Below are positions 135 through 18,790 of a stretch of 24,158 nt of DNA, in pieces. Source of the DNA: an uncultured bacterium (GTDB lineage Bacteria; Abyssobacteria; SURF-5); the NCBI GenBank assembly GCA_964510165.1, contig CAZEBC010000040.1, positions 1 through 24,158 on the forward strand, written 5' to 3'. Position numbers and translations under genes: made by a program. Each line of letters opens with the position of its first letter. Positions within the stretch are counted from its first letter, which is position 1. The notes below the pieces were generated by a model that was given only the letters and a program-made list of their open reading frames with translations, searched no databases and was not told where the DNA came from.

Positions 135-791
135 ATGAGCACACGGGCGAGGACGATTGAGGATAAGGAGTTACGCAGAAGGCGGCTCTTGGATGCCGCG
201 AAGGAGCTTTTTTTCGAGCGGGGGTATCGCGACACGACGATCGAGATGATCACGGAGCGGGCGGGCGTCAGCACAGGCGCGTTCTACCTCTACTTCAAGA
301 GCAAAGAGGAAATCTACATGACGCTGTACGCCGACGGGATCGACATATTTCATCGGATGGCGCGGCAGGCGATCTCGTGGCCGGGCATGAGCGCGCTGGC
401 GCGGCTGTCGGCGGTCGCGCACGCATATTTCCGTTTCTACAAGGAGCACACGGAATACTTCGAGATACTGGCGTTCATCCATATGTATGAGACGAAGCTG
501 AAGGAGCGGACGGAGATGTCGGCGCTCTTGGATGAGAAGGCGATCGCGCTCTTGAAGATGATCGAGGGCGTGATCAAGGAGGGGATCGAGCGCGGCGAGC
601 TGACGCCGCGCGACACGTGGAAGACGACGAACGTGCTGTGGGGGATGATGGACGGACTCGTGATGCTGGCCGAGCGCAAGAACGTAATGGTGATGGGCGT
701 GACGCTGGAGGATTTGTTCAAGGAAGCGCTCGAGATTATTTTTTATGGGGTGAGCGGCGGCAAGAATAGTGGTGATTCAAAGCCGCCGTGA
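135..791 (+). CDS. TetR/AcrR family transcriptional regulator
   Basis: N-terminal HTH 'RRRLLDAAKELFFERGYRDTTIEMITERAGVSTGAFYLYFKSKEEI' is the TetR signature; helical C-terminal ligand domain; AGGA at 121-124 upstream of the ATG. Confidence 0.95.
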   Translation: MSTRARTIEDKELRRRRLLDAAKELFFERGYRDTTIEMITERAGVSTGAFYLYFKSKEEIYMTLYADGIDIFHRMARQAISWPGMSALARLSAVAHAYFRFYKEHTEYFEILAFIHMYETKLKERTEMSALLDEKAIALLKMIEGVIKEGIERGELTPRDTWKTTNVLWGMMDGLVMLAERKNVMVMGVTLEDLFKEALEIIFYGVSGGKNSGDSKPP

Positions 792-935: not shown

Positions 936-3428
936 ATGACGACGACGGCGAGGACGGGACGGGGGACGGGGACGCGGCGGTCGCGGTTTGTTGAGGCGTT
1001 CGAGGCGAGCCTCGGCAACGGCCACACGGATTACATCAAATATATCGCGGCACAGGATGGCCCCTCGAGCGAGCGCAACCGGCAGCGGCGCGATGCGTTT
1101 TTCAACACGCCGTTCAGCATCTGCATCGAGCGGGCGCGGTATTACACGGAGAGCTTCAAGCGGACCGAGGGCGAGCCGCAGGTGATCCGGCTGGCGAAGG
1201 CGCTTCGCCATTATATGGAGCACGTTACGATTGTGCTGGCGGAGGGCGACCTGTTCGCGGGCTATCAGGGCGGCAAGATTCTGTGCTCACTGATGTATCC
1301 CGAGCTTGCATCGGCGTATCTGGACGAGAATGCATGGGAGGAAGCGAGCAATTTCAACATCAATCCGGTGCAGATAAGCGAGGCGGAGGTCGCGGAACTG
1401 AAGGAGATCGCGCCGTACTGGCGGGGGAAGTCGGTGCAGGAGCATTACAACTACTTGAAGCCGCACAATGACGACCTGGTGCACCAGCGCGGGCTGATAT
1501 TCGCGTACAACATGCTGGCGGGCGTGGGGCATGTGATTGTGGACATCGAGCGCGGCATCTATCGCGGATTGGGCAGCATCCGCGATGAGGCGCGCGCGAA
1601 GGTGGAGGCGTTGCAGAGGCATCCCGAGGATGCGATCACTCCGAAGAAGATCGCGTTTTACAAGGCGGTCGCGATCGCGCTTGAAGGTTTGTTCGCGTAT
1701 GCACATCGGTGCGCCGATTATGCCGAGGCGCGCGCGAGGGAAGAGGCCGACGAAGAGCGGCGCGAGGAGCTATTGCGGATCGCGCGGGCGTGCCGTCATG
1801 TGCCGGAGCATCCGGCGCGGGACATGTACGAGGCGATACAATGCACGCTGTTGATGTTGACGGCGAACCAGATGGAGTCGTGCGAGATATCCATATGTCC
1901 GGGGCGGATGGACCAGGCGCTGTATCCGATATATCGGGCGGACATCGAGGCGGGCCGGTTCACGCGGCAGGACATGGTCGAGTTGTTCGAGAATTTCCTG
2001 ATCCGGATCGGGCAGAGTTCGTGGCTGTACAGCGGGCGTCAGCAGGGCGCGCTGTTTTATCCGAGGAAGGGGAATCTGGTGACGGTCACGCTGAGCGGCA
2101 AAGATGAGCGGGGAAACGACACGACGAACGAGCTTACGTATTTGATCCTCCATGCGCACGCGAACAACCGGCTCGGGCATCCGAGCATCGCGGTCAGGTT
2201 TCACAAGAATTCGCCGGAGGCGCTGCGCGAGGCGTGTGCGCGGATCATCGGAACCGGGAAGGGCCAGCCCGGCGTAATGAACGACGAGGTAATGATTCCG
2301 GCGTTGATGCGGCTGGGATTTGAGGAGAAGGACGCTCACAATTACGCCGACATCGGCTGCATCGAGATGGGGTCGGCGGGCACCTCGATTGGGCCGTCGA
2401 GCATCGGGTTTGTGAATCTGGCGAAGTGCCTGGAGCTTGCGCTGCACAACGGGCGCTGTCCGATATATAACGACCAGGTCGGACCCAGGACCGGCGACGC
2501 GCGGGCTTTCACGAGCTACGAACAACTCATGAAGGCATATGCCGAGCAGGTGCGTTTCGCGGTGACGCAATTCAATCAGTCGGTGTCTGCGATTGAGATG
2601 CTGCATCAGCGGCTGAGGCCGATACCGTACATGTCTTCGATCACGGACAACGCGATGGAGCGCGGGCTTGACCTGACGGACGGCGGCTCGAAGTATTATT
2701 TCGCGGGTATCGAGGGGATCGGCGTGGCCGATGTGGGCGATTCGCTCGCCGCGATCAAGAAGCTGGTGTTCGAGGAGAAGCGGGTTTCGATGGCGGAGCT
2801 TGTGGACGCGCTGGCGACCAATTTCGGCGAGAACGAGCGGTTGAGGCAGATGCTGTTGAACGCTGCGCCGAAGTATGGGAACGACGACGATTACGTTGAC
2901 GAGATTGCGCGCGAGGGGTGCACGGTGTTTCTCGAGGAAGTGAAGAAGCACCGCGATTATTGGGGCAGCGTGTACAATCCGGGGATATGGTCGATAGAGC
3001 TTGCGATGATATTGGGGGCGGCGGTGGGTGCGCTGCCGAGCGGGCGGTGCGCGTTCGAGTCGCTGACGGAGGGAGTGGCGCCGTCGCGCGGGTGCGACCG
3101 GAAGGGGCCGACGGCGACGGTGAGGTCGGTCGCCAAGCTGGACCACCATCTGATGGAGAACGGCAGCATTTTTAATATGAAGTTCAATCCCGACACGTTC
3201 AAGGACGAGAGCATCGGCAAGTTCATTGACGTGATGAAGACGTATTTTGCGCTCGGCGGGTTCCAGATGCAGTTCACGGTGGTGGACCGGAAGACGCTGT
3301 TGGCCGCGCGCGAAGAGCCGGAGAAATACCGTGACCTGGTGGTGCGGGTGGCCGGTTACAGCGGGTATTTTGTGGAGCAGTCGCCGCGCGTGCAGGAGCA
3401 TATCATAGAGCGGACGGAGTATTGTTGA
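936..3428 (+). CDS. Glycyl radical enzyme (PFL2/eliminase-like family), substrate unknown; GRE1
   Basis: 830 aa; N-terminal 'ICIERARYYTESFKRTEGEPQVIRLAKAL'; Cys loop 'YADIGCIEMG' (Cys475, Glu477); 'APKYGNDDDYVD'; Gly loop 'DLVVRVAGYSGYF' (Gly807); strong SD GAGGAGG upstream. Confidence 0.95.
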   Translation: MTTTARTGRGTGTRRSRFVEAFEASLGNGHTDYIKYIAAQDGPSSERNRQRRDAFFNTPFSICIERARYYTESFKRTEGEPQVIRLAKALRHYMEHVTIVLAEGDLFAGYQGGKILCSLMYPELASAYLDENAWEEASNFNINPVQISEAEVAELKEIAPYWRGKSVQEHYNYLKPHNDDLVHQRGLIFAYNMLAGVGHVIVDIERGIYRGLGSIRDEARAKVEALQRHPEDAITPKKIAFYKAVAIALEGLFAYAHRCADYAEARAREEADEERREELLRIARACRHVPEHPARDMYEAIQCTLLMLTANQMESCEISICPGRMDQALYPIYRADIEAGRFTRQDMVELFENFLIRIGQSSWLYSGRQQGALFYPRKGNLVTVTLSGKDERGNDTTNELTYLILHAHANNRLGHPSIAVRFHKNSPEALREACARIIGTGKGQPGVMNDEVMIPALMRLGFEEKDAHNYADIGCIEMGSAGTSIGPSSIGFVNLAKCLELALHNGRCPIYNDQVGPRTGDARAFTSYEQLMKAYAEQVRFAVTQFNQSVSAIEMLHQRLRPIPYMSSITDNAMERGLDLTDGGSKYYFAGIEGIGVADVGDSLAAIKKLVFEEKRVSMAELVDALATNFGENERLRQMLLNAAPKYGNDDDYVDEIAREGCTVFLEEVKKHRDYWGSVYNPGIWSIELAMILGAAVGALPSGRCAFESLTEGVAPSRGCDRKGPTATVRSVAKLDHHLMENGSIFNMKFNPDTFKDESIGKFIDVMKTYFALGGFQMQFTVVDRKTLLAAREEPEKYRDLVVRVAGYSGYFVEQSPRVQEHIIERTEYC

Positions 3429-3536
3429 AATGCGCGCGAGGCGCGCGGTTTCTGGTTTCTGGTTGAAGGACAGATGAAAGAGAGAGGGAAAGATTCGTCC
3501 ACGAAGAGCGTGAAAAGGGCAGGCGCAGGGGCAGAC

Positions 3537-3590: not shown

Positions 3591-6173
3591 ATGGAACTCA
3601 GGGATGATGCGAGCGAGCGGATCAAGCGGCTGCGCCGGCGGTACATGGAGGAGCCGGTCTGGATATCGGTAGAGCGGGCGCGGTACTACACGGAGTCATG
3701 GCGCGAGACGGAGGGATCGGGGCTGTCGCTCGGCGTTCGCGTGGCGCTCGCGATGAAGAACGTGTTTGAGAAGATGACGCACTGCGTGGACCCCGACGAC
3801 CGGATCGCCGGCGCGTGGACCGAGTACTTCCTCGGGGCGCCGATTGATGTCGAGCGCGGCCTATTCAACAACGTCCTCCGGATCGAGCTTGGCAAAGGCT
3901 CGATGCTCGCCCACCAGATCAAATCGAATGCCCGCTTCCTTTCTTATATGGTTCGCAAGTACGGCCCCGTCGAATTCTACAATAACATGAAGCGCACGCG
4001 GGAGGTGGGCGCGGCGATGCCGAGCATCGGGCTGAAGACGATGCCGGAGCGGAGGATCAATCCGTACGCGATCAAGCCGGAGAACAAGAAAGTATTGCGG
4101 AAAGAGGTGCTTCCATACTGGGAAGGCGAGACGATGGCTGAGGTGGTCGCGCGCGAGATGGAGCGGTCGGGGTTGTTCGGGGGCGACTTGCGCGATTTTG
4201 CCGCCGCGCTTCCAGCGACGACCTCGAAGATGTACACGTTTCTCTCGCCCGGGGCGGTGCTGGGGACGTATCAGGGACACGTGGTTCTGGATTACCAGCG
4301 GGCGGTCGTGGACGGGCTGTTGAGGATGAAGGAGGAGGTTCGGGAAAAGATCGATGGCGACGGCAGCCAGACGCAGGGGGAGCGCGATTTTCTGGAGTCG
4401 GTGGATATCGCGCTTGACGGCGTGATCATATTCGCCAGGAGATTGGCGGACAAGGTGAAGGAGGAACTCGACAAGGAGAGCAATCCGGAACGGAAGGCGA
4501 CGCTCTCGCGCATGTTTGAGAATTGTTTGAGGGTTCCGCTTCATCCGGCGGAGAGTTTACGCGAGGCGCTGCAATCGTTCTGGACGGTGAAGGTCGCGAC
4601 CGAGCTGGCGAACATCACCAACGTGCATTCGGCGGGACGGATTGATCAGATTTTTTATCCATATTATAAGAAAGATGTCGAGGCCGGGCGCATCGCGCGC
4701 GAGGAGGCCCGAGAGCTGCTCGAGGAGTTGCTGCTGAAGATCATGACACAGAACGTGAGGCCCGAGTCGAATTTCATCGGCGATTTCTATCAGCGGTACG
4801 AGGGTTCGGCGCCGGTCACGCTTGGTGGGCTGACGCGCGATGGGACGGACGCGACGAACGAGCTGACCTACATCCTTCTTGAGGCGGCGGAGCGCTCGAA
4901 GAGCGCGGTCAATGTCGTCGTAAGGTTTCACAAGGACACGCCGGAATCGCTTTACATGAAGGTAGCGGATGTCCTTTATCATGGGACATCCAGCGTATCG
5001 CTCATGAACGATGAGGTCTGTATCGAGGCGATGAAGCGGCGGGGATTCAGCGAGGAGGACGCGCGCGATTACGCGATCACGGGTTGCGTGGACCTGCTGG
5101 CGCCGGGGAAGACGGGCGGCATAGGGTTTGCAGCGATTCTGCTGAGCCGGGTGCTCGACATGACGCTCCGCAACGGCGATTCACAGACGCTGGTGGGGCT
5201 GATTCGGAATGCGGGCGTGAAGACAGGCGACCCGGACAGGTTCAGTTCGTTTGAGCAATTGGTTGACGCCTTCATCGCACAGGCGGCGCATGTCATCAAG
5301 GCTATCGCGGACGGCTCGAACCTGCGGGACAGGCTCTTCAGTGAGATGCAGCCGGCGCCGTACATGTCGGCGTTCATGCAGGGGTGTTTGGAGAAGGGAA
5401 GGGACGTGACGGAGGGCGGAGCGGTGTACGACCTGTCCGGCATCCTGTTCATGAACAGCATCGCGAACGTGGTGGATTCACTGTACGTGATCAAGCGGCT
5501 CATTTTCGAGGAGAAGCAGTTCACATTCAAGGAATTGCTCGAGGCGATCGATCATAATTTTGTCGGGTATGAGCGGATTCATCGGTTGATCAAGGGCGTC
5601 GAGGGCAAGTGGGGCAATGGGAATCCGGAGTCGGACGCGCTCGCGCGCGAGGTGACGACGCGCCTGTTCGAGGAGACATACAAGCATCGAAGCTTCAAGG
5701 GCGGCCCGTTTGTGCCGTTCGTCAACAGCATGACCTCGCATACGTATGACGGGCGGATTTCGATTGCGACGCCGGACGGCCGAAAGGCGGCCACACCGTT
5801 CGCGGCAAGCTGCAATCCTTATAATGTGGACAAGTGCGGAGTGACCGGGGTGCTGAGGTCGGTGGCGGCGCTCGATTTCAGGCACATTTTCGGGTGCGCG
5901 GTGAACATACGGCTGCATCCATCGGCAATTGGGAAGAGCGAGGAAGCCCGGCGTAAATGGGTGGCGCTCGTCAGGACGTACTTCAGGATGGGCGGCATGC
6001 AGTTGCAGCCGACGGTGGCCTCGACCGAAGTTTTGCGCGCCGCGCAGAAGGATCCCGACAGCTACCGCAGCTTGATTGTGAAGGTGGGCGGCTACAGCAC
6101 GTATTTTGTGGACCTTGGCCGCGAGATCCAGAACGAGATCATCTCGCGCTCGGAGCACAGAGTCGGCGTGTGA
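3591..6173 (+). CDS. Glycyl radical enzyme, non-canonical motifs, substrate unknown; GRE2
   Basis: 860 aa; 'ISVERARYYTESWRETEG', 'GRIDQIFYPYYKKD', 'DATNELTY'; Cys loop 'YAITGCVDLL' (Cys499, Asp501); Gly loop 'SLIVKVGGYSTYF' (Gly834). Confidence 0.93.
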   Translation: MELRDDASERIKRLRRRYMEEPVWISVERARYYTESWRETEGSGLSLGVRVALAMKNVFEKMTHCVDPDDRIAGAWTEYFLGAPIDVERGLFNNVLRIELGKGSMLAHQIKSNARFLSYMVRKYGPVEFYNNMKRTREVGAAMPSIGLKTMPERRINPYAIKPENKKVLRKEVLPYWEGETMAEVVAREMERSGLFGGDLRDFAAALPATTSKMYTFLSPGAVLGTYQGHVVLDYQRAVVDGLLRMKEEVREKIDGDGSQTQGERDFLESVDIALDGVIIFARRLADKVKEELDKESNPERKATLSRMFENCLRVPLHPAESLREALQSFWTVKVATELANITNVHSAGRIDQIFYPYYKKDVEAGRIAREEARELLEELLLKIMTQNVRPESNFIGDFYQRYEGSAPVTLGGLTRDGTDATNELTYILLEAAERSKSAVNVVVRFHKDTPESLYMKVADVLYHGTSSVSLMNDEVCIEAMKRRGFSEEDARDYAITGCVDLLAPGKTGGIGFAAILLSRVLDMTLRNGDSQTLVGLIRNAGVKTGDPDRFSSFEQLVDAFIAQAAHVIKAIADGSNLRDRLFSEMQPAPYMSAFMQGCLEKGRDVTEGGAVYDLSGILFMNSIANVVDSLYVIKRLIFEEKQFTFKELLEAIDHNFVGYERIHRLIKGVEGKWGNGNPESDALAREVTTRLFEETYKHRSFKGGPFVPFVNSMTSHTYDGRISIATPDGRKAATPFAASCNPYNVDKCGVTGVLRSVAALDFRHIFGCAVNIRLHPSAIGKSEEARRKWVALVRTYFRMGGMQLQPTVASTEVLRAAQKDPDSYRSLIVKVGGYSTYFVDLGREIQNEIISRSEHRVGV

Positions 6174-6260: not shown

Positions 6261-7169
6261 ATGAAGGGCATAGTCTTCGACATTCAATACTATTCGATGT
6301 ATGACGGACCGGGGATACGCGCGTGCGTTTTTCTGAAGGGCTGTCCGCTGCGGTGCGCGTGGTGCCACAACCCGGAATCGCAGAGCCCGAATCCGGAGAT
6401 GTCGTATTTCGCGGAACGATGTGCGCGGTGCGGAAAGTGCGTCGAGGCCTGCTCCTCGCATGCGCTTCGATTGACGGATGAGGGGGTCGTGAGGGACCGG
6501 GCCGCATGCGGTGTGTGCGGGGTGTGCGCGGACACTTGTCCCAATGAGGCCATGGAGCGAATAGGCAAGGAACTCTCGACGGAGCAAATTGTTGAACAGG
6601 TCTCGCGCGACCGGGAGTTTTATGAGATGTCGGGCGGCGGGGTCACGATTTCGGGCGGCGAGCCGACCTTGCAGGCGGAATTTCTGCTTGAACTGCTGGG
6701 GGGCATCAAGCAAAGGGGGCTGCATACCGCGCTTGAGACATGCGGTTTTTTCGGGGAAGACTTGATAGAAGCGCTTGTGGAACATGTGGACCTGTTTCTG
6801 TATGACATAAAGCACGTGAGAGCTGAGCACCACGAATACTTTACGGGTGTTTCCAATGAGCGGATTGTGTCCAATTTCTCCAAGATACTTGGTCGCGTTG
6901 GAAGTTCTCGGGTTATTCCCAGGGTACCTGTCATCCCGGGTTTCAATGATGACGCCGACTCGATAGAGGGGATGGTCGCTTTCCTTAACGAGGTCGGGTA
7001 TGATGGCCCAGTCCACCTGATGCCGTACAATCGGATGGCCAAGACGAAGTGGGAGAAGATAGGGAAGGGCTCTCTTTACAGGGACATGGGCAGCCTTGAA
7101 GAAGAGACCCTGGGGGGTATCGTGTCTTGCTTTGAGCGGGCCTCATTTGAGACGGTGTGTAATCGGTGA
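6261..7169 (+). CDS. Glycyl-radical enzyme activating enzyme (radical SAM, with 2x[4Fe-4S] ferredoxin insert)
   Basis: 'DGPGIRACVFLKGCPLRCAWCHNPES' (CxxxCxxC); insert 'CARCGKCVEAC...CGVCGVCADTCP'; 'GGGVTISGGEP'; 'HTALETCG'; 'PVIPGFND'. Confidence 0.96.
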   Translation: MKGIVFDIQYYSMYDGPGIRACVFLKGCPLRCAWCHNPESQSPNPEMSYFAERCARCGKCVEACSSHALRLTDEGVVRDRAACGVCGVCADTCPNEAMERIGKELSTEQIVEQVSRDREFYEMSGGGVTISGGEPTLQAEFLLELLGGIKQRGLHTALETCGFFGEDLIEALVEHVDLFLYDIKHVRAEHHEYFTGVSNERIVSNFSKILGRVGSSRVIPRVPVIPGFNDDADSIEGMVAFLNEVGYDGPVHLMPYNRMAKTKWEKIGKGSLYRDMGSLEEETLGGIVSCFERASFETVCNR

Positions 7170-8048: not shown

Positions 8049-8501
8049 TTATGCCCGCGTCTCCTTGTCGAGGAAGTGGAGCGGGTCTTTCTTGCGATAT
8101 ACCAGGGCCTGGCAGATGGCGAGGAGTTTGCCGGTCTGGTCGCTTACGGTGATGTAGTAGTTGGCGGTGCGGGCGGTGCGATTGATTTCCTTGGCTTCGG
8201 AGGTGAGCAGGGCGCCCGCCTCGGGCGTCGAGAGGTATGTAATGTTCATGTTGAGGGCGACGGCTACGGTGCCGTGGGAGTTTGAGGCGGTCTCGAACGC
8301 CTCGTCAATAAGGGAGAAGACGGCGCCTCCGTGGGCCATGCCGTGGATATTTGCCATGTCGGGTGTGAATCTCATTTGCACCTTTGAGTAGCCGGCTCCT
8401 ATCTCCTTGAGTTCCAGTCCCATCTTGCGCGCATAGGGTTCTTCCTTCACCTTTTGGCGGATCGCCTCGAAGACCGTTTCGTTCATATCTGATCCTTTCA
8501 A
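8049..8501 (-). CDS. paaI: PaaI-family (hotdog fold) acyl-CoA thioesterase
   Basis: 'NIHGMAHGGAVFSLIDEAFETASNSHG' hotdog motif; 'VALNMNITYL'; 'TANYYITVSDQTGKLLA'; context next to paaK. The true start may be the second Met (MNETV), which follows AAAGGA. Confidence 0.88.
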   Translation of the reverse strand: MKGSDMNETVFEAIRQKVKEEPYARKMGLELKEIGAGYSKVQMRFTPDMANIHGMAHGGAVFSLIDEAFETASNSHGTVAVALNMNITYLSTPEAGALLTSEAKEINRTARTANYYITVSDQTGKLLAICQALVYRKKDPLHFLDKETRA

Positions 8502-8606
8502 TATTTGCCGGTTAAAGAGCGCACGCCGTGCGCCTGTACCCGATCATGCGACGATGCGGACAGATTCGTTGCGACAGGCCAATATTCGATTTTCCTCAGA
8601 ACTCCT

Positions 8607-8721
8607 CGTCATTGCGAGGGAGGAACGTAGTTCCGACCGAAACAATCCCGGTACAGTTGGTCCCGGCCGCTGTATCGAGATTGCATCTTCATCCCGTGTT
8701 CGCGTGATTCCTCGCAATGGC
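8607..8721. repeat. CGTC-type palindromic element (cloverleaf, MITE/REP-like)
   Basis: Terminal inverted repeat GTCATTGCGAGG (8608-8619) / CCTCGCAATGGC (8710-8721); internal stems GGAAC/GTTCC and CAATCCCGGTACAG/CTGTATCGAGATTG. Confidence 0.8.
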
Positions 8722-8777
8722 TCTCGTGAGAGGACGAGCGGATTTTCGGATTTTGCAGCGAAATCAACAGTCAAGCC

Positions 8778-8806
8778 ATGATACCTTGGAAGAGGCGAAG
8801 AGTCAA
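8778..8806 (-). promoter_or_regulatory. sigma70-type promoter for paaI
   Basis: Minus strand TTGACT (8806-8801), 17-nt spacer, TATCAT (8783-8778). Confidence 0.65.
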
Positions 8807-8844
8807 CCGGCATGGTCATTTTGGCCGGAACTCGTTGATGCCGC

Positions 8845-8870
8845 TGGATGTCCGTCCATGTTGACATCCA
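8845..8870. promoter_or_regulatory. Candidate operator overlapping the -35 box
   Basis: Perfect inverted repeat TGGATGTC-N10-GACATCCA; a further TGACATCC half-site at 8901-8908. Confidence 0.5.
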
Positions 8871-8889
8871 CTATTCATCATGGTATACT
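8861..8889 (+). promoter_or_regulatory. sigma70-type promoter for the paaK-liv operon
   Basis: TTGACA (8861-8866), 17-nt spacer, TATACT (8884-8889), with a TG extended -10 at 8881-8882. Confidence 0.8.
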
Positions 8890-9036
8890 TGCGCCACTTG
8901 TGACATCCCTGGGCACGCGCGTCTTACCCCAAGACGGACGTGGGAGGCTGTCCCGTGACAGACGGACGCCAACATATTCGCACGAGCGTACGTGGAAACA
9001 CTGGAGAAGTGTTTGATATATCTGGCCGGTTTCCAT

Positions 9037-9061
9037 GAGGCGGTTCACGAACCGCCTCTAC
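9037..9061. repeat. GTAG-type REP palindrome, family C copy 1
   Basis: GAGGCGGTTC-AC-GAACCGCCTCTAC; related to 12287-12316. Confidence 0.8.
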
Positions 9062-9171
9062 AATCGCGGTAGCGGCTCCGCGCCATTACAAAGGAAAACG
9101 CACAGTATTTGGGAAACTGGGTGACGCGCGCGAATGAGATTGAATTTATCAAGAAGAAGGAAGTGATGACG

Positions 9172-10479
9172 ATGATCTGGGATGAAAAGCACGAATGCAT
9201 GCCGAGGGAAGAGCTCGAGGCGCTTCAACTGAAGCGGCTGAAGGGCGTGGTCAAGCGGCTGTATGCAAACGTGCCCTATTTCCGCAATAAACTGGATTCG
9301 CTTCATCTGAAACCCTCCGACATCAAGGCCCTCAAGGACCTTCAAAAGCTTCCCTTCATCACAAAGCATGACCTGAGGGAGACGTATCCATTCGGGTTGT
9401 TTGCCAGGCCGCTTAAGGATGTGGTGAGAATCCATTCGTCATCGGGGACGACGGGCAAGCCCGTGGTGGCGGGATATACCCGTGCCGACCTTAACCTGTG
9501 GGCTGAGCTGATGGCGCGCACGATGACGGCTGGCGGCATGACGGCCGACGACATTGTACAGAACGCTTACGGGTATGGGCTGTTCACTGGCGGCCTCGGC
9601 ATTCATTACGGCGCGGAGAGGATCGGGGCGACGGTGATTCCGATTTCGGGCGGCAACACGAAGCGGCAACTCATGATAATGGAGGATTTCGGCGCGACCG
9701 TTCTGGCCTGCACGCCGTCGTATTCTCTCCAGATCGCCGAGGTGGCGCATGAGATGTGTCTCGACATGAAGAGGATGAAACTGCGGGTGGGTTTCTTCGG
9801 CGCTGAGCCTTGGTCGGACCAGATGCGGGTGGAAATCGAAGAACAGCTCCATCTCAAGGCGATGGACATCTATGGGCTTACGGAGGTGATCGGGCCGGGG
9901 GTTGCGGCCGAATGCGAACACCGATGCGGGCTGCACGTCTTCGAGGACCATTTCCTCGCCGAACTGATCGATCCCGACACGTGCGAGCCGCTCCCGCCGG
10001 GACAGACAGGCGAGCTTGTGCTGACGTGCTTGACGAAGGAGGCGTTTCCTGTGGTGCGTTTCCGCACGCGGGACATCGTGAGCCTGAACCATGAGCCGTG
10101 CGAATGCGGCCGAACGCTTGTGCGCATGGCGCGCGTGACCGGCCGGACCGACGATATGCTTATCATCAGGGGAGTCAACGTGTTTCCCTCGCAAATCGAG
10201 AGCGTTCTTGTGGGCATTGAGGAAGCCGAGCCTCATTACCAACTTATTGTGAGCAGGGACGGGGTAATGGACACGCTCGAGGTCCAGGTTGAGGTTGACC
10301 AGAAGCATTTCTCCGACGAGATCAAGGGGATGCAGCGGCTGGAGCGCAAAATCGCGCACGAGATCAACAGCATGCTGGGCATCCATGTGAAGGTAACTCT
10401 GGTTCAGCCGAAAACCATCGAGCGCAGCATGGGGAAGGCGAAGCGGGTAATTGACATGCGCAAGGAGGGATTACCGTGA
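9172..10479 (+). CDS. paaK: Phenylacetate--CoA ligase family protein (canonical)
   Basis: P-loop '[12 protein letters not shown]', '[17 protein letters not shown]', 'GAEPW', 'DIYGLTE', 'RFRTRD', '[20 protein letters not shown]', C-terminal 'GKAKRVID'. Start reassigned to ATG 9172 (MIWDEKH) after the SD AAGGAAG. Confidence 0.95.
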
Positions 10480-10910
10480 AAGTACGGCAGGTATCCGTTT
10501 TCCTTGAGAACAAGATAGGCCATGCGCGAATGGTCACCGATGAGCTGAAGAAGGCGAATCTGAACCTTCGGGCGATTACGCTCGCTGACAGCGAGAACTT
10601 TGGCATCTTGCGCATGGTGGTCGAAGACCCCGATAAGGCCTACGCGGTTCTGCGCACGGCGAACTTTGCCGTTCAGGAGACCGATGTCATCGCGGTCGAG
10701 GTGCCCGATCAGCCCGGCGGGTTGAGCGAGGTGCTCAAGACGCTCGAGGACTGCGGCGTGAATATCGAATACCTGTACTCGGTGCTCGAGCGCAAGAGCA
10801 ACAAGGCGGTCATTATTATTCGGGTTGAGGATATTGACAACGTCATCGCGCAATTGAAGGACCGCCACATCAAGCTCTTGTCGAGCAAAGAGGTGTACGG
10901 GGCGCTTTGA
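10476..10910 (+). CDS. Tandem ACT-domain (amino-acid-binding) protein
   Basis: '[11 protein letters not shown]...[15 protein letters not shown]...[13 protein letters not shown]...VNIEYLY'; GTGA overlap with the paaK stop. Confidence 0.9.
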
Positions 10911-10915
10911 GAGAC

Positions 10916-10937
10916 GGGCGCAATGAATTGCGCCCCT
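10916..10937. repeat. REP-like palindrome, family D (AATGAATT core)
   Basis: GGGCGCAAT-GA-ATTGCGCCCCT; degenerate relatives at about 88-109 (GTGCAAATGAATTCGCGCCTAG) and about 21411-21431 (GTGCGAATGAATTCCCGCCCAC). Confidence 0.7.
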
Positions 10938-11063
10938 CGACGGAATCACGAAGCGTGGGACAGATTCCGTAAAGCTCTGGCGTTACCGGACCTGCCCGGT
11001 CGGCAGGCCGTGAGGAGTTTGCACTTTTATTGAAGAGGGTTGAGGTAAGAGAGGAGTGGAAGC

Positions 11064-12218
11064 ATGAAGAAGATTCTGATACTGGCTGTAGTTGCGTGTC
11101 TCGCGCTGAGCGCGACCGTTCTTGCGGCTGAGCAGGAACCCATCAAGATCGGGGCCGTCTTCGCGGTTACGGGCAAGGCTTCGTGGCTGGGCGAGCCGGA
11201 GCGGAACACGGTGAAGATGATCGAGGCCGCCGTGAACGCGAAGGGGGGCATCAACGGCAGGCCGATTCAAGTGATTGTCGAGGACGATGCGGGCCTCGAA
11301 CCGAACACAGTAAATGCGGTCAAGAAGCTGGCGACGAAAGATAATGTGGTCGCGATAGTAGGTCCGACGACGACCGGCACGACTCTGGCGGTCAAGCCGA
11401 TTGCCGAGGAATACGGCGTTCCGCTGATCTCCTGCGCCGCGGCGGAAGCAATCGTCAATCCCGTGGCCAAATGGGTGTTCAAGACTCCGCAGAAGGACAG
11501 TGACTGCGCGACACGCATATACGAGCACATGAGGGAAAACGGCATCACAAAGGTGGCCATCATCACCTCGACAGACGGGTTCGGCGCAACGGGGCGCGCC
11601 CAATTGCAGGCTCTTGCTCCCACGATGGGAATAGAACTCGTTGCGGACGAAACGTACGCGCCCACGGACACGGACATGACCGCGCAACTGACCAAGATCA
11701 AGGGAAGCCCTGCGCAGGCGCTCGTGAACTGGTCGGTCGGGCCCGTTCAGGTTGTTGTGGTGAAGAACGTGCGGCAGCTCGGTCTGACAATTCCGGTTTA
11801 TCAGAGCCATGGTTTTGGAAACCCGAAAAACATCGAGGCGTGCGGCCCGGCTGGCGAGGGGATCATCTTCCCTGCGGGGAGACTGCTTGTGGTGCAGAGC
11901 CTGCTGGACAGCCATCCGCAGAAAGCGGTCCTCGCGAAGTACAAGGCCGAGTATGAGGAGCAGTTCAAGGACCAGGTGAGCACGTTCGGCGGGCATGCGT
12001 TCGATGCGTTGTGGCTCGTGCTCGACGCGATCAAGGCGGTTGGGCCGGACAGGGCGAAAATACGGGATTACATCGAGAACACGAAGGGGTTCGTCGGGAC
12101 CGGCGGCGTGTTCAATTTCTCGCCCACGGACCATTGCGGCCTTGACAAGAACGCCTTCGAGATGATGACGGTGAAGGACGGAAAATTCGTGCCGCTTGCG
12201 GCCCTTGCGAAGAAGTAG
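11064..12218 (+). CDS. ABC transporter substrate-binding protein, LivK/Leu-binding family (probably aromatic acid)
   Basis: Signal peptide; 'IKIGAVFAVTG', 'NAKGGINGRPIQVIVEDD', 'DTDMTAQLTKIK'; SD GAGGAG. Confidence 0.93.
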   Translation: MKKILILAVVACLALSATVLAAEQEPIKIGAVFAVTGKASWLGEPERNTVKMIEAAVNAKGGINGRPIQVIVEDDAGLEPNTVNAVKKLATKDNVVAIVGPTTTGTTLAVKPIAEEYGVPLISCAAAEAIVNPVAKWVFKTPQKDSDCATRIYEHMRENGITKVAIITSTDGFGATGRAQLQALAPTMGIELVADETYAPTDTDMTAQLTKIKGSPAQALVNWSVGPVQVVVVKNVRQLGLTIPVYQSHGFGNPKNIEACGPAGEGIIFPAGRLLVVQSLLDSHPQKAVLAKYKAEYEEQFKDQVSTFGGHAFDALWLVLDAIKAVGPDRAKIRDYIENTKGFVGTGGVFNFSPTDHCGLDKNAFEMMTVKDGKFVPLAALAKK

Positions 12219-12240
12219 AACCTGAAGGTTTTCGGGCGCA

Positions 12241-12316
12241 GTCACGCCAGGGCGTGACGCCCCTGCAAAGATTAGTAAGCATACATTGCAGGGGCGGTTT
12301 GCGAACCGCCCCTGCA
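12241..12316. repeat. Two REP-like palindromes between the SBP and permease genes
   Basis: GTCACGCC-AG-GGCGTGAC-GCCCCTGCA and the perfect TGCAGGGGCGGTT-TGCG-AACCGCCCCTGCA (12287-12316). Confidence 0.8.
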
Positions 12317-12371
12317 GTATGACGCGCGTCTGGTTGGCGCTCAACTTGGTGTGGTTTGTGTTTCGTGATTC

Positions 12372-13265
12372 ATGGATGTTTTCTCTCGGACTCTTCAATA
12401 CATATTCACCGGCGTTGCCATCGGCAGCATTTATGCGATGGTCGCGCTGGGATTTAACATAATTTATAACTGCACGGGCATCATCAATTTCGCGCAAGGC
12501 GAGTTTGTGATGCTTGGCGGCATGTTCATGGTGACGCTGACCACGGTGTGGAAACTCCCCGTGGCGGTCGCGTTTCCGATAGCTGTCGCGCTAGTCGTAC
12601 TGGTAGGCGTGGTATTCGAGCGGATCGCGATTCATCCCTTGAAGAATCCGTCAGTGCTGGTGCTGATCATGATCACCATAGCCGGTTCCATTCTGGTCAA
12701 GGGGCTGGCGATGTTTGCGTGGGGCAAGGAGGCGCGTTATCTTCCACACTTTTCGGGGGAAACGCCGATCGCCATTTTCGGGGCGACGATTCTGCCGCAA
12801 ACGTTATGGGTTTTGGGGAGCCTCGGGGCGGTGGTCGTCGCGCTCGCGTGGTTTTTCAATCGAACGTTGATGGGCAAAGCCATGCGCGCGTGCGCCCATA
12901 ATGCTAACGCCGCCCGCCTCGTGGGGATCAGCGTGAAGCAGATGGTGACGCTCTCATTTGGCATCTCGGCGGGCATCGGGGCCGTGGCCGGGATCGTCAT
13001 CGCGCCGATCATCCTGATGGACTACCAGCGGGGCGCGATGCTGGCTCTGAAGGGATTCGGCGCCGCAATCCTTGGCGGGCTTGGCAGCGGGCCGGGCGCA
13101 GTGATGGCGGGCATCCTCCTGGGAATACTGGAATCGCTTGGCGCGGGCTACATTTCCTCTCATTACAAGGATGCGATCGCGCTTATCGTGCTGCTCGTTG
13201 TGTTGTTTGTCCGGCCGGGAGGGATGCTGGGCAACGCCGAGGCGCAACGGTTGAAGAAATTCTGA
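12372..13265 (+). CDS. livH: Branched-chain amino acid-type ABC permease
   Basis: 'GSIYAMVALGFNIIYNCTGIINFAQGEFVMLG', 'GKAMRACAHNANAARLVGI', 'LKGFGAAILGGLGS'. Confidence 0.92.
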   Translation: MDVFSRTLQYIFTGVAIGSIYAMVALGFNIIYNCTGIINFAQGEFVMLGGMFMVTLTTVWKLPVAVAFPIAVALVVLVGVVFERIAIHPLKNPSVLVLIMITIAGSILVKGLAMFAWGKEARYLPHFSGETPIAIFGATILPQTLWVLGSLGAVVVALAWFFNRTLMGKAMRACAHNANAARLVGISVKQMVTLSFGISAGIGAVAGIVIAPIILMDYQRGAMLALKGFGAAILGGLGSGPGAVMAGILLGILESLGAGYISSHYKDAIALIVLLVVLFVRPGGMLGNAEAQRLKKF

Positions 13266-14221
13266 TGAAGCGACATATCGCTACAGTTTTGTTTGCCGTG
13301 CTCGTGATGGGAATTCCCCTTATCGTGAGGAATCCATACTATGTGGGCGCGCTGGTGTTCGTCGGGATATACTCGCTGATGACGGTCTGTCTCTGCCTGC
13401 TGCTTGGCTATGCAGGCCAGATATCGCTGGGACATGCGGCCTTCTATGGAATCGGCGCATACACCTCGGCGGTATTGACCACGCGCACGCATCTTTCGCC
13501 GTGGCTGGCGCTTGTTGCGGCGATGGCGGTGACGGCCGCTCTTGCCTTCCTGGTTGGCCGGCCTGTGCTCAAGCTGCGCGGCCATTATCTGGCGATGGCG
13601 ACGCTAGGCTTCGGCGAAATCATCTATATTGTCTTCAATTCTGCGGTCGAGCTGACGGGAGGGCCGTCGGGCCTGGGCCAAATCCCGCGGCTTTCGATAG
13701 GCGGGTTCGTTTTCAAGAATGACATTCATTATTACTATCTGGTATGGCTGACCGTCATCGTGCTTGTTGTGCTTGTGCTCAATATCATCAATTCGCGGGT
13801 GGGCCGGGCGCTTCGCTCGATTCATGGGAGCGAGACGGCGGCCAACGCGATGGGAGTGAACACGGCCTCGTACAAGATGCAGATATTCGTGTTTAGCGCA
13901 GCCGTCTCGTCCCTTGCAGGAAGCTATTACGCCCATTTTGTCACGTTCATAAGCCCGACGACATTCGACGCGAACGTGTCCGTACTGCTGGTGACAATGG
14001 TGATCGTCGGCGGCATGTCGAAGGTGTGGGGCGCGCTGCTGGGGGCGGCTCTTCTGGGCACGCTTCCGGAATACCTGAGGACATTCGGCGATTACGACAT
14101 TCTGGTGTACGGCGCGATCATGCTCGCCATCATGATGTTTGCGCCCGAAGGATTGTCCGGCCTCATTGTTGCCTGCAAGAGGTCGTTGGCCGGGAAATCC
14201 TTGCGCGGGGCCCCGGCCTGA
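13265..14221 (+). CDS. livM: Branched-chain amino acid-type ABC permease
   Basis: 'GYAGQISLGHAAFYGIGAY', 'LRGHYLAMATLGFGE', 'LTGGPSG', 'SRVGRALRSI'; TGATG overlap with livH. Confidence 0.92.
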   Translation: MKRHIATVLFAVLVMGIPLIVRNPYYVGALVFVGIYSLMTVCLCLLLGYAGQISLGHAAFYGIGAYTSAVLTTRTHLSPWLALVAAMAVTAALAFLVGRPVLKLRGHYLAMATLGFGEIIYIVFNSAVELTGGPSGLGQIPRLSIGGFVFKNDIHYYYLVWLTVIVLVVLVLNIINSRVGRALRSIHGSETAANAMGVNTASYKMQIFVFSAAVSSLAGSYYAHFVTFISPTTFDANVSVLLVTMVIVGGMSKVWGALLGAALLGTLPEYLRTFGDYDILVYGAIMLAIMMFAPEGLSGLIVACKRSLAGKSLRGAPA

Positions 14222-14231
14222 GGCACGAAGC

Positions 14232-15011
14232 ATGTTGAAGGTGCAGGGCTTGAGCAAGCGCTTCGGCGGGGTCATCGCGGTCAACGACCTGAGTTTTGAA
14301 GTGCGCGAGAAGCAGATAAAATCGGTCATTGGACCGAACGGCGCGGGCAAGACCACCTTGTTTAACCTGCTGACCGGGCTGCTTCCGCCGACTCGCGGGA
14401 AGATTACGTTCCTGGAAGAGAACATCTGCGGACGCAGGCCTCACGAGATCGCCCGGATGGGCATATCGAGGTCGTTCCAGAACGTCGAGATATTCGATAA
14501 CATGAGCGTGCTCGAGAACGTGATGCTCGGGCGACACTGCCGGACCCGCTGCGGCGCGTTCAGCAACGCGCTGCGCTGGAGGAAGGCGGTGGAGGAAGAG
14601 CGGCGGATCACCGAGGAGGCGATGGGTCACCTTGCGAGCATCGGGCTGGACGTTGACCCGCATGTTTCGCCGGCGTCGCTCCCGTTCGGAAAGCGCCGAA
14701 TGGTGGAGTTCGCGCGCGCGCTTGCGACTTCGCCCCGGCTGCTGCTGCTCGATGAGCCGGCCTCGGGGCTGAACATCCGCGAGACCGAGCAGATCGCCCG
14801 GCTCATTTGCCGGATTCGCGACTCCGGCGTTACGGTGATGCTCGTGGAGCACGACATGTCGGTCGTCATGGAGATTTCGGACGAGGTTCTCGTGATGGAC
14901 TACGGGATCAAGATTGCCGAGGGCAAACCGCGAGACGTGCAGCGGAACGAAGAGGTCATCGCGAGATACCTTGGCCGCTCCAACAGTCATGTTAAAGGTC
15001 CAAAACCTTAA
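14232..15011 (+). CDS. livG: ABC transporter ATP-binding protein
   Basis: Start reassigned to 'MLKVQGLSKRFGG'; Walker A GPNGAGKT; 'LLLLDEPASG'; 'LVEHDM'; 'ARYLG'. Confidence 0.93.
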   Translation: MLKVQGLSKRFGGVIAVNDLSFEVREKQIKSVIGPNGAGKTTLFNLLTGLLPPTRGKITFLEENICGRRPHEIARMGISRSFQNVEIFDNMSVLENVMLGRHCRTRCGAFSNALRWRKAVEEERRITEEAMGHLASIGLDVDPHVSPASLPFGKRRMVEFARALATSPRLLLLDEPASGLNIRETEQIARLICRIRDSGVTVMLVEHDMSVVMEISDEVLVMDYGIKIAEGKPRDVQRNEEVIARYLGRSNSHVKGPKP

Positions 15012-15723
15012 GAGTTATTATGGGCGCTTGCAGGCGCTCCGGGGGATCAGCCTTCACGTCGGCAAGGGTGAGATCGTCACGCTTATCGGCGCGAACGGAG
15101 CCGGCAAAACCACCATATTGAACACGGTCGCCGGGCTCATTACGCAATGCGAGGGCGCCATCCTTCTCGACGGCAAGGACATCAAGGGATTGCCGCCCGA
15201 GAGGATCGTGAAGCTGGGCGCGGTGCTCGTGCCCGAGGGACGGCAACTGTTCGCACCGATGACCGTCGCCGACAATCTTCTGCTTGGCGCATATCTGAGG
15301 CACAAGAACGGAAGCAAGGCTGAGCTGGAGCAGGACATGGGGATGGTCTTCGAGATGTTTCCGGTGCTTAAGGAGCGCCGCAAGCAGTTGGCCGGAACCC
15401 TCTCGGGCGGTGAACAGCAGATGCTGGCGATCGGGAGGGCGCTCATGTCACGGCCACGGCTGATGCTGCTTGATGAACCCTCGATGGGCCTGGCGCCGAA
15501 GGTGGCGGAGGAAATCTTTCGGACCATTGTACGGCTGAAACAGCAGGGGGTAACCGTCCTGCTGGTGGAGCAAAACGCGCGGATGGCGCTCGAGGTCGCC
15601 GAACGCGGCTATGTCATTGAGACGGGTCAGGTGGTTGTCCAGGGACCGAGCGCCGACCTGTTGAGGAATCGCGAGGTCGAGCGCGCGTATCTCGGCAAGA
15701 CGTACGAGAAGGTGTGGGAATAA
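14989..15723 (+). CDS. livF: ABC transporter ATP-binding protein
   Basis: Start reassigned to 'MLKVQNLKSYYG'; GANGAGKT; 'VPEGRQLF'; 'LSGGEQQMLAIGRALM'; 'LLDEPSMGLAP'; 'LVEQN'. Confidence 0.94.
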   Translation: MLKVQNLKSYYGRLQALRGISLHVGKGEIVTLIGANGAGKTTILNTVAGLITQCEGAILLDGKDIKGLPPERIVKLGAVLVPEGRQLFAPMTVADNLLLGAYLRHKNGSKAELEQDMGMVFEMFPVLKERRKQLAGTLSGGEQQMLAIGRALMSRPRLMLLDEPSMGLAPKVAEEIFRTIVRLKQQGVTVLLVEQNARMALEVAERGYVIETGQVVVQGPSADLLRNREVERAYLGKTYEKVWE

Positions 15724-15746
15724 GCACGCACCGACGGGATTGCTGA

Positions 15747-17063
15747 ATGACGGGGATCGACACATTATACAGGACTATGACGCGGGAGGAGATCGAGCAG
15801 CTTCAGCTCGAGCGGCTGCAATCGACGCTCCACAGGGTGTACAAGAACGTCGGCTATTATCGGGAGTCGTTCCGAATCTGCAACTTTTATCCCGATGACA
15901 TGGTCAGTCTTGACGGGCTGGCGAAACTGCCGACCACCGGCCGCGCCACGCTCGTTGAGAATTATCCGTACGGCATGTTCGCGCTTCCATTGAGGGAGGT
16001 CATACGGCTTCAGGCCGCGTCGTCGGTGCTTCACGAGGCGATCGTCGTCGGCTTCACCCGCAATGACATTGACCACTGGACCGAACTGGCCGGCCGGTCG
16101 TTAATCTCAGCCGGCGTCGGGCGGGACGACCTTGTGCATATCTGCGTGGATTACGGCTTGTTCCCCGGCGCGCTCGGGCTCCACTACGGCGCCGAGAAGA
16201 TCGGGGCGTCCGTCATCCCCGGCGGCGCGATGCCGCCGGATTCCGAGTTCGAGATGATGAAGAACTATCATGTGACCGTGCTCGTGACGACACCGCACAG
16301 AGCGCTTCGTCTCGCGCGATATATCTGCGAGCACGGAGGCGCCGCGCGGGCTCTGATGCTCCGCGCGTGCCTGCTTGTGGGGCAATACTGGTCAGAGGCG
16401 GTTCGTTCACGGCTGGAAGAACATCTGTGCGCGCCCGTCTTTGACTGTTACGGTCACCATGAGATAGTCCCCTCCGGCATCGCGGCCGAGTGTGAGAAGA
16501 AGAGCGGGCTTCATATCAACGAGGACCATTTCATTGCCGAGGTGGTTGACCCCGCGAGCGGCCGCCCGCTTGCGCCCGGACAGGAGGGCGAGCTCGCGAT
16601 TACCACGCTTACGAAAGAGGCCTTCCCACTGATCCGCTATCGCACGGGCGACATCACGCGCATAAACAAGGCGCCTTGCCAGTGCGGGTCATGCTTCGCG
16701 CGGATGGAGCGGGTCTCGCAACGGACGGACGACATGATATTCGTTGGGGGAATACATTTCTTTCCCTCGCAAGTGGAACAAATACTGAGGCGGGTAGTCG
16801 GGCTTAAGCGGTTATCGCCGGCATTTCAAGTTGTCATCGAGGGCGCCGACGCCAACGAGTCGGTTGAAGTGCTGGTCGAGGTGAACGAATCGATCTTGTC
16901 GGATAAGTTGCGCACTCTCAGGGCAATCGAAACAAAAATACAGGACGAACTGTTCGATATGCTCGGCGTCACGGCGAAAGTCAGGCTCGTCGGGCCAGGC
17001 GCCCTGAGCCTGGGACCCCGCGGAGAAGGCCGCGTGGTCGACAAGCGGGAATTGAATTCTTAA
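15747..17063 (+). CDS. Phenylacetate--CoA ligase paralog with degenerate catalytic motifs
   Basis: Colinear with PaaK1 ('REEIEQLQLERL', 'NYPYGMFA', 'LHYGAEKIGA', 'GLHINEDHF', 'LTKEAFPLIRYRTGD', 'RTDDM'), but the P-loop and the C-terminal Lys motif are altered. Confidence 0.88.
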   Translation: MTGIDTLYRTMTREEIEQLQLERLQSTLHRVYKNVGYYRESFRICNFYPDDMVSLDGLAKLPTTGRATLVENYPYGMFALPLREVIRLQAASSVLHEAIVVGFTRNDIDHWTELAGRSLISAGVGRDDLVHICVDYGLFPGALGLHYGAEKIGASVIPGGAMPPDSEFEMMKNYHVTVLVTTPHRALRLARYICEHGGAARALMLRACLLVGQYWSEAVRSRLEEHLCAPVFDCYGHHEIVPSGIAAECEKKSGLHINEDHFIAEVVDPASGRPLAPGQEGELAITTLTKEAFPLIRYRTGDITRINKAPCQCGSCFARMERVSQRTDDMIFVGGIHFFPSQVEQILRRVVGLKRLSPAFQVVIEGADANESVEVLVEVNESILSDKLRTLRAIETKIQDELFDMLGVTAKVRLVGPGALSLGPRGEGRVVDKRELNS

Positions 17064-17114
17064 TTCCGATTGGCCGTTGGCGCCGGAGGATGGGTTGTCC
17101 GTGAGGAGGAGGTG

Positions 17115-17225
17115 ATGAGGAGAAAAAGACAAGCTCGGACCCTGTTTCGGGTCGCGAGGAACATCGCCGTTATAGGATTCATGCTGTTAGAAAAGGCACG
17201 TTTACAACAAAGGGAGAAAGCATGA
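17115..17225 (+). CDS. Possible 36-aa small ORF overlapping the porin start
   Basis: AGGAGG SD at 17104-17109, ATG 17115, MRRKRQARTLFRVARNIAVIGFMLLEKARLQQREKA, TGA overlapping the porin ATG (ATGA). Codon usage is atypical for this window. Confidence 0.25.
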   Translation: MRRKRQARTLFRVARNIAVIGFMLLEKARLQQREKA

Positions 17226-18718: not shown

Positions 18719-18731
18719 AGGCGAATCGGAC

Positions 18732-18763: not shown

Positions 18764-18790
18764 TCGTTCGGCCTCTGATGTGGGACTGAT

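Follow-up and report, generated by a model that had tools for sequence, protein, structure and literature searches.

An intact glycyl radical enzyme with altered Cys and Gly loops from an uncultured SURF-5 bacterium belongs to a large, unstudied branch of its superfamily

The GRE2 gene and its altered motifs

The window, meaning the whole stretch of DNA that was analysed, is 24,158 nucleotides of contig CAZEBC010000040.1 (positions 1 to 24,158 of the forward strand, GenBank assembly GCA_964510165.1) from an uncultured bacterium of the SURF-5 lineage of the Abyssobacteria. It carries genes for two glycyl radical enzymes (GREs), of which the second, GRE2, is the subject of this report. Translation of positions 3591 to 6173 on the plus strand gave a protein of 860 amino acids (P0001) with zero internal stops. 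The protein matched the Pfam families PFL-like (PF02901, 503 bits) and Gly_radical (PF01228, 74 bits), and an AlphaFold2 model made from an 89-sequence alignment had a mean pLDDT of 93.9 and a pTM of 0.94. With a PFL-like barrel, a C-terminal glycyl radical domain and a target TM-score (TMt) of up to 0.93 to GRE structures, GRE2 is a member of the GRE superfamily.

The original prediction, made from the sequence alone, had drawn attention to three motifs in GRE2, and each was found where it had been placed and in an intact frame. The Cys loop ITGCVD (5076..5093, plus strand, residues 496-501) contains Cys499, the thiyl site, and Asp501, which replaces the Glu of the usual CXE. The sequence GKWGNG (5604..5621, plus strand, residues 672-677) stands in place of the usual PKYGND. 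The Gly loop LIVKVGGYS (6072..6098, plus strand, residues 828-836) contains Lys831, Gly833 and the radical site Gly834; the end of the feature in that prediction, 6107, lies three codons past this motif. The fingerprint around the radical Gly of GREs is RVxG[FWY], according to PMC13450708 and PMC11528403, and GRE2 departs from it literally since the loop is KVGGY, with the Gly and Tyr kept and the Arg changed to Lys. The CXE motif of eliminases and isomerases is also altered in GRE2, which has C-V-D and so retains the carboxylate as Asp. Because RVxG and CXE are both broken, enzymes of this kind escape literal motif searches.

Comparison of the model with solved structures using Foldseek gave as leaders the 1,2-propanediol dehydratases (5I2G, 9RCO), glycerol dehydratase (GD, 1R8W), Archaeoglobus fulgidus PFL2, HypD and CutC, with query TM-scores (TMq) of 0.84-0.86 and TMt of 0.91-0.93, while BSS (TMq 0.78-0.79), MASS (0.80) and arylacetate decarboxylase (0.80) ranked lower. 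A sequence search of the PDB with GRE2 gave the same picture, with E values of 2e-118 for HpsG and 3e-115 for CutC as against 2e-62 for BSS and 1e-59 for MASS. The closest relatives by sequence and by fold are thus eliminases. None of the NCBIfam equivalog cut-offs, which lie between 1000 and 1150 bits, was reached by GRE2, the scores being 456 for HpsG, 413 for HpfG, 447 for HypD, 390 for CutC, 378 for the PflD type and 348 and 293 for the indoleacetate and hydroxyphenylacetate (HPA) decarboxylases. The subfamily model TIGR01774 gave 508 bits, under its cut-off of 678.

The five solved structures nearest to the Gly-loop peptide all have Arg at the position of Lys831, and the five nearest to the Cys-loop peptide all have GCVE, PflD being the best match. 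The expectation that no known GRE carries the pair of a CxD Cys loop and a Lys Gly loop was borne out among the solved and reviewed GREs in the alignments inspected, where neither feature was seen even singly, the remaining characterised GREs being judged by statements in PMC13450708. A search of the ESM Atlas returned generic GRE clusters only, and no structure of GRE2 is stored there. The literature search found no paper on the GRE2 clade, with the string 'KVGGY' appearing only in unrelated papers, and no paper on what the RVxG Arg contacts when searched for as PFL Arg731.

Extent, tree and selection of the family

A word-indexed search of 5.8 billion proteins produced 8000 scored candidates, 751 of them with E ≤ 0.001. 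The best 120 of these 751 homologs were 57-100% identical to GRE2 and 805-891 amino acids long. Sources named among the matches listed were Candidatus Abyssubacteria (91% identity), Dehalococcoidia, Desulfobacterales, 'Deltaproteobacteria' and Desulfomonilia and, among the archaea, Lokiarchaeota, Promethearchaeota and Hermodarchaeota. The family comprises at least 120 clusters at 90% identity, with members in candidate phyla as well as in Dehalococcoidia, Desulfobacterota and Asgard archaea. When 1.84 billion representatives at 50% identity were searched exhaustively with HMMER, 7206 proteins had E ≤ 0.001, and here the identity to GRE2 fell from 54% (P0127) and 46% (P0128) straight to 39% or less, so that the family is well separated from its neighbours.

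Conservation within the family was examined in an alignment of 122 sequences comprising GRE2, a stored duplicate of GRE2, 119 matches and, as a control, the first GRE of the window (GRE1), which leaves 121 family rows. KVGGY was found in all 121. The Cys loop was GCVD in 86, GCVE in 17, SCVD in 14 and GCTD in 4. Cys+2 (position 501) was Asp in 103 sequences and Glu in 18. The third motif was GKWGNG in 104, GKWGNA in 8, NRWGNG in 6, GRWGNG in 2 and GMWGNG in 1. Cys499, His230, Trp674, Lys831, Gly833, Gly834 and Tyr835 were each present in 121/121, Gly672 in 115 and Gly677 in 113. Since they recur across 121 homologs the motifs of GRE2 are neither chance nor private changes, and among its closest homologs (72-91% identity) GCVD, KVGGY and GKWGNG occur without exception, rather than the GCVE and RVAG that private changes in GRE2 would have implied.

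For comparison, 64 other GREs were assembled from 63 full-length representatives in the listed matches P0135-P0199 together with GRE1; P0127, P0128 and P0138 were set apart and representatives shorter than 700 amino acids were dropped. The catalytic Cys was present in 64/64. Cys+2 was Glu in 52 and Asp in none, and at position 831 there was Arg in 57 sequences and Lys in 6, with one gap. Within this sample CxD is therefore peculiar to the GRE2 family and Lys is a recurrent minority state; the Arg of RVxG, which had been described as very highly conserved, is indeed common elsewhere but falls short of near-invariance. At the positions equivalent to PKYGND, the Pro was kept in 57 sequences, the Tyr appeared as Tyr in 44 or Phe in 16, and the Asp was kept in 57. 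A coupling between Lys831 and Gly677, at the PKYGND Asp position, was considered and rejected, since PKYGND is retained in the other GREs that have Lys, and a terminal Gly occurs there in two GREs that have Arg. Among the distant HMMER matches, P0182, P0183 and P0193 (RVATW, RVAAY and RVSTW) had Thr or Ala in place of the radical Gly, a pattern fitting the aminoacyl radical enzymes described in PMC11528403.

Seventy-four signature positions were at least 90% conserved in the family and shared with no more than 15% of the 64 other GREs. Examples, with the commonest residue in the others in brackets, are Thr332 (Phe), Ala340 (Glu), Ser467 (Gly), Leu517 (Asn), Ser623 (Gly), Pro807-Thr808 (Phe-Asn) and Gly833 (Ala or Ser). 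A remodelled active site had been proposed, and the alignment points the same way at the level of sequence, some of the signature positions being apparently aligned with pocket residues of GD and HypD. The family also has an insertion of about 48 amino acids (residues ~103-150, 3897..4040, plus strand), predicted as two long helices; this region has 77 residues in the family and in P0128 only, as against 27-42 in the other 64 sequences. In the AlphaFold2 model the helices span residues 102-124 and 126-139 and the block has pLDDT values of 85-94.

A midpoint-rooted FastTree phylogeny (LG+gamma) was made from 120 family sequences, 66 representatives and GRE1. The family including P0127 formed a clade with a support of 0.999. 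Its sister, P0128, which is 46% identical to GRE2, has KVGGF, PKWGNG and the 48-amino acid insertion and a Cys loop, VCAN, that is without a carboxylate at Cys+2. The next sister, P0138, has GCVE, KVGGY and PKFGND. By parsimony the ancestor of the family had Asp, and a single switch to Glu defines an 18-member clade with a support of 1.0. The two sisters and the parsimony result together indicate that Lys and the Gly-Gly pair came first, followed by xKWGNG and the insertion and then by Asp with one reversal. On the question whether GCVD and KVGGY are fixed together the answer was mixed: KVGGY is universal, but the two are not strictly coupled, as P0138 combines GCVE with KVGGY and Asp reverted once to Glu in 18 sequences. 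Three subclades make up the family: the main one with 88 sequences (74 GCVD, 14 SCVD), a second with 22 (18 GCVE, 4 GCTD) and the window's own with 11, all GCVD.

The ratio dN/dS of GRE2 by the method of Nei and Gojobori (NG86) was 0.115 against the ortholog in relative G001 (79% amino acid identity, dS 1.24) and 0.099 against that in relative G005 (74% amino acid identity, dS 1.8), both being rough as dS is near saturation. GRE2 is conserved and under purifying selection. The idea of a subfamily under selection rather than in decay was therefore upheld by the support for the clade, by the key residues in 121/121 sequences and by dN/dS of 0.10-0.12 against the two nearest orthologs. GRE2 is an intact member of a large, unstudied GRE branch and not a decaying gene, and the clade is defined by the KVGGY Gly loop, a CxD Cys loop (CxE in one subclade), GKWGNG for PKYGND and the helical insertion of about 48 amino acids.

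The activase and the gene neighbourhoods

A radical SAM activase is expected near a GRE, and the open reading frame (ORF) at 6261..7169 on the plus strand is such a glycyl-radical activating enzyme (TIGR02494, 330 bits, cut-off 174) and the probable cognate activase of GRE2. Its orthologs, at 51-72% identity, lie directly after family GREs in other genomes. The neighbourhoods of the family were tabulated for the window and 50 loci, which lie on contigs of genomes and metagenomes or in the genomes of relatives; some near-duplicates, such as L009/L115 and L023/L128, are included and five fragments were untyped. In loci of the Asp type the activase follows the GRE directly in 25 of 29, and three of the four misses are cut by the contig end while the other, L019, has a thiolase instead. 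The 16 loci of the Glu type have an adjacent activase in one case, an acetoacetate-decarboxylase-like (ADC-like, PF06314) gene in nine and a URO-D-type methyltransferase gene in seven; neither an ADC-like nor a URO-D gene was seen in the 29 Asp-type loci. The ADC-like loci of the GCVE subclade (L006-L010, L012, L015, L095, L115) were observed to have acyl-CoA dehydrogenase and SDR/epimerase genes too, and those with the URO-D-type methyltransferase (L006, L013, L015, L095, L112, L114, L117) to have B12-binding genes.

In the main subclade an operon of the form [TetR]-MFS_2-GRE(GCVD)-GRE(SCVD)-activase-Fe-alcohol dehydrogenase-FGGY kinase was found (L003, L109, L110, with variants in L002 and L111), and on Asgard contigs the order was KDPG-type aldolase-FGGY kinase-GRE-activase (L016-18, L118, L119, L124). 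Since members of a clade share ancestry, these recurrences are clade-level associations rather than independent events. All five family loci with two GRE genes (L002, L003, L109, L110, L111) pair a GCVD with an SCVD type, the two being ~60-70% identical and sharing a single activase, and these pairs may be a two-enzyme system or a mixed dimer. The SCVD type has extra cysteines right after the loop (SCVDCC or SCVDLC). A metagenome scan found no member of the window's subclade, the best identity being 65%, and the gene context of this subclade therefore rests on three loci, those of the window, G001 and G005.

Upstream of GRE2 are GRE1 (936..3428, plus strand), a canonical GRE of 830 amino acids with GCIE, PKYGND and RVAGY that is 34% identical to GRE2 by alignment, and a TetR-family regulator (135..791, plus strand, Pfam TetR_N) which travels with GRE1. 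The TetR-GRE1 pair was found in all five relatives of the same bacterial family that have GRE1 (G001, G004, G005, G006, G008), with identities of 72-79% for TetR and 77-79% for GRE1, and in G001 and G005 GRE2 and the activase are on other contigs than GRE1. TetR and GRE1 are a separate, older unit from GRE2. A GC-rich hairpin with a weak T tract (3431-3447) lies 3 nt after the GRE1 stop, before a gap of 163 nt to GRE2; the promoter and terminator scan gave site counts equal to chance, leaving the hairpin as a weak hint.

In G004 (locus L101, contig C166) the activase directly follows GRE1 with no GRE2 between, and at position 4232 of the locus it has TAA where the activase of the window has GAG (Glu46), a difference explained either by a nonsense mutation or by an error in the sequencing. 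In G006 (L102 4021-5161, contig C12) the GRE1 ortholog is followed by a deletion remnant of the GRE2-activase module: residues 1-156 of GRE2 are in a 168-amino acid ORF, and GRE2 residues 548-583 run in frame into residues 116-302 of the activase, with loss of the radical SAM cluster motif. The module is probably also intact in the 91%-identical relative, whose GRE1 and GRE2 homologs are on contigs of equal length. Given that it is unlinked from GRE1 in G001 and G005, lacks GRE2 in G004 and is a remnant in G006, the module has been gained, moved or lost within the bacterial family.

The genome, which is 97% complete, has six GRE genes (two on contig C40 and one each on C93, C211, C146 and C28) and three activases (C40, C9 and C146), hence the activases are probably shared. 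A search for sequencing runs listed five sources of DNA and none of RNA. Further downstream in the window, positions 8049-21357 hold a set of aromatic-acid genes: a 4HBT thioesterase on the minus strand, two PaaK-like phenylacetate-CoA ligases, a Liv-type ABC transporter, a DcaP-like porin and the indolepyruvate:ferredoxin oxidoreductase IorAB. Between the activase and the PaaK, IorAB and ABC-transporter genes lie a 171-amino acid ORF without a family match and the opposite-strand thioesterase gene.

Proposed reaction, alternatives and known relatives

According to PMC13450708, CXE is retained by all eliminases and isomerases characterised so far, and its Glu forms a hydrogen bond to the substrate; in HypD His160 is 2.5 Å from Glu436 and both are essential, as given in PMC7077986. 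In HMMER alignments, with positions counted by hand, Asp501 of GRE2 aligns with GD Glu435, and His230 (codon 4278..4280, plus strand) aligns with GD His164. The carboxylate-pairing His of eliminases and isomerases (GD His164, HypD His160) thus has a counterpart in GRE2 which is the likely partner of the Cys+2 carboxylate, and this His is present in 121/121 family sequences and in 50 of the 64 other GREs. We consider it probable, at roughly 60%, that GRE2 is a functional member of a distinct, uncharacterised clade of PFL2-type GREs with eliminase- or isomerase-like chemistry in which an Asp501-His230 pair takes the role of Glu-His.

By homology, the downstream activase would abstract hydrogen from Gly834 and the resulting glycyl radical would generate a thiyl radical on Cys499. 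The thiyl would then abstract hydrogen from the carbon beside a substrate hydroxyl while the Asp501 carboxylate, held by His230, would accept or hydrogen-bond the hydroxyl proton. The ketyl-type radical so formed might lose a group from the adjacent position, a 1,2-elimination, or isomerise by ring opening, and the product radical would finally take hydrogen back from Cys499. As Asp is one methylene shorter than Glu and many positions aligned with the pocket carry family-specific replacements, the site of GRE2 would suit a substrate that differs from those of the GREs known so far. The operons of the main subclade, and of that subclade only, suggest that the substrate is derived from a carbohydrate or polyol.

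Several observations weigh against this assignment. The Asp501-His230 contact and the proximity of Cys499 to Gly834 are predicted from alignment, and given that all characterised eliminases and isomerases have CXE, a CxD enzyme might use its carboxylate differently. The carbohydrate-type neighbours belong to the main subclade of 88 sequences and not to that of the window, where the activase is the sole common neighbour across the three loci. With six GRE genes and three activases, more than one assignment of activases to GREs is conceivable. Furthermore, the survival of mere deletion remnants in G006 means that the module is dispensable in that lineage.

The changed loops could instead reflect a different handling of the radical, with the family catalysing a reaction type new among GREs, that is, neither elimination, isomerisation, decarboxylation, the formate-lyase reaction nor X-succinate synthesis. 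Both fingerprint motifs deviate across the whole family, many of the 74 replaced positions are conserved across other GREs, no equivalog cut-off was reached and the sister P0128 has no carboxylate at Cys+2, all of which would fit. However, the carboxylate and its partner His are retained, Asp and Glu interchange inside the family, the fold and the best sequence matches are those of eliminases, and Fe-alcohol dehydrogenase, kinase and aldolase neighbours are typical of dehydratase and isomerase pathways, so a new reaction type seems unlikely to us. The aromatic-acid genes downstream in the window, with their two PaaK-like ligases, IorAB, 4HBT thioesterase and Liv-type ABC transporter, raise the possibility that GRE2 acts on an aromatic acid, for instance as an arylacetate decarboxylase, together with the nearby phenylacetate-CoA ligase and indolepyruvate oxidoreductase. 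Those genes are nevertheless split off by the 171-amino acid ORF and the opposite-strand thioesterase gene, and the PaaK, IorAB and ABC-transporter genes do not neighbour the GRE2 orthologs in G001 and G005 or the GREs in any of the roughly 50 loci of the family. The decarboxylase models score below those of the eliminases (348 bits for a cut-off of 1100 and 293 for one of 1150) and no ORF for a small Cys-rich subunit was found near GRE2, which makes this role quite improbable. More doubtful still is a role of GRE2 in activating hydrocarbons as an X-succinate synthase, such as has been suggested for certain GREs of Asgard archaea and Archaeoglobus. Members of the family are frequent in sediment Asgard archaea, Dehalococcoidia and Desulfobacterota, and PMC8163825 calls some Asgard GREs Ass/Bss, but BSS and MASS are far weaker matches than the eliminases (2e-62 and 1e-59 against 2e-118 for HpsG, TMq 0.78-0.80 against 0.85), there are no ORFs for beta or gamma subunits and no short Cys-rich ORFs flanking GRE2 or the activase, and the neighbours of the family are sugar-type transporters, kinases and aldolases. 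The Hermodarchaeota 'Ass/Bss' proteins of PMC8163825 were considered as family members and rejected, as neither KVGGY nor GKWGNG occurs in its sequence supplement, where FASTA line breaks could hide single cases though not all; they are therefore a different clade.

GRE2 might also assist a second GRE (GRE1 here, the SCVD paralog elsewhere) in a non-catalytic or auxiliary role, either as half of a mixed dimer or as a radical store. The window does have two GRE genes for one activase, as do all five two-gene family loci with their constant GCVD and SCVD pairing. Most family loci have a single GRE with an activase, though, GRE1 and GRE2 are unlinked in G001 and G005, and a scaffold would not need the invariance seen for the catalytic Cys, His, carboxylate and Gly; such a role is very unlikely. 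Least probable of all is that the motif changes come from neutral drift or from a redundant paralog beginning to decay. Each of the two changes is conservative and takes a single nucleotide, there are six GREs in the genome and most of GRE2 has been lost in G006, yet identical residues are fixed across 121 sequences from several bacterial and archaeal phyla whose pairwise identities of 57-91% show that the alignment is not an artefact of near-identical sequences, dN/dS is about 0.1 and the frame is intact. Decay, X-succinate synthase and arylacetate decarboxylase are each contradicted by the tests reported here.

The 2026 review PMC13450708 describes whole GRE clades without an experimental function and states that every PFL-like GRE of known function is bacterial. 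Going beyond the assignment of GRE2 as an eliminase- or isomerase-like enzyme, one may speculate, though this is rather unlikely, that the KVGGY/CxD clade is a new functional class of GREs, abundant in Asgard archaea and subsurface bacteria, with loops and pocket remodelled for a reaction or substrate class new to GREs. Its possible role would then be the radical step in an unrecognised anaerobic carbohydrate pathway with the FGGY kinase, KDPG-type aldolase and Fe-alcohol dehydrogenase, and the CxE sister subclade would be wired to the ADC-like and corrinoid methyltransferase genes. A characterised member would show whether Asp can replace the catalytic Glu and what the Lys/Gly-Gly loop means for recognition by the activase, and could reveal a new route of anaerobic carbon turnover in sediments. 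As the conserved operons suggest testable substrates, the clade is a good target in the search for new enzyme function.

Among known systems the best structural match to GRE2 is with GD and 1,2-propanediol dehydratase (1R8W, 5I2G, 9RCO; TMq 0.85, TMt 0.92), which are B12-independent C-O eliminases. GRE2 has in common with them the single catalytic Cys, a carboxylate at Cys+2, the His aligned with GD His164, the C-terminal glycyl radical domain and the adjacent activase. The identity is 27-29%, however, and GRE2 differs in having Asp for Glu, Lys for Arg, GKWGNG for PKFGND and the 48-amino acid insertion. In the HMMER alignment GD Phe333 and Asp447, the latter of which we take to be a pocket residue, align with Tyr400 and Phe513 of GRE2.

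The sulfonate C-S lyases HpsG, IseG and IslA and the choline lyase CutC are the top sequence matches in the PDB and share the PFL2-type architecture with GRE2, but its NCBIfam scores of 456 bits for HpsG and 390 for CutC are far under the respective cut-offs of 1000 and 1050, and the sulfonate-binding Arg183 of HpsG appears to align with a Leu. The Cys loop nearest to that of GRE2 is found in the sugar-phosphate isomerase PflD, where the carboxylate is likewise followed by Leu and, further on, by PG(K/R)T. PflD/YbiW are anhydro-sugar-phosphate isomerases, and anhydroglycolysis involves sugar kinases and aldolases, like the operons of the main subclade. The overall similarity of GRE2 to PflD/YbiW is lower than to the dehydratases, the PflD-type model PRK09983 gives 378 bits against a cut-off of 1109, and PflD/YbiW have CXE and RV-type Gly loops according to PMC13450708. 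Archaeoglobus fulgidus PFL2 (2F3O, TMt 0.93), an archaeal GRE whose function is debated, is of the PFL2 type and comes from an environmental anaerobe, as does GRE2; it is 29% identical to GRE2 and has GCVE, PKYGND and RVAGW and no insertion.

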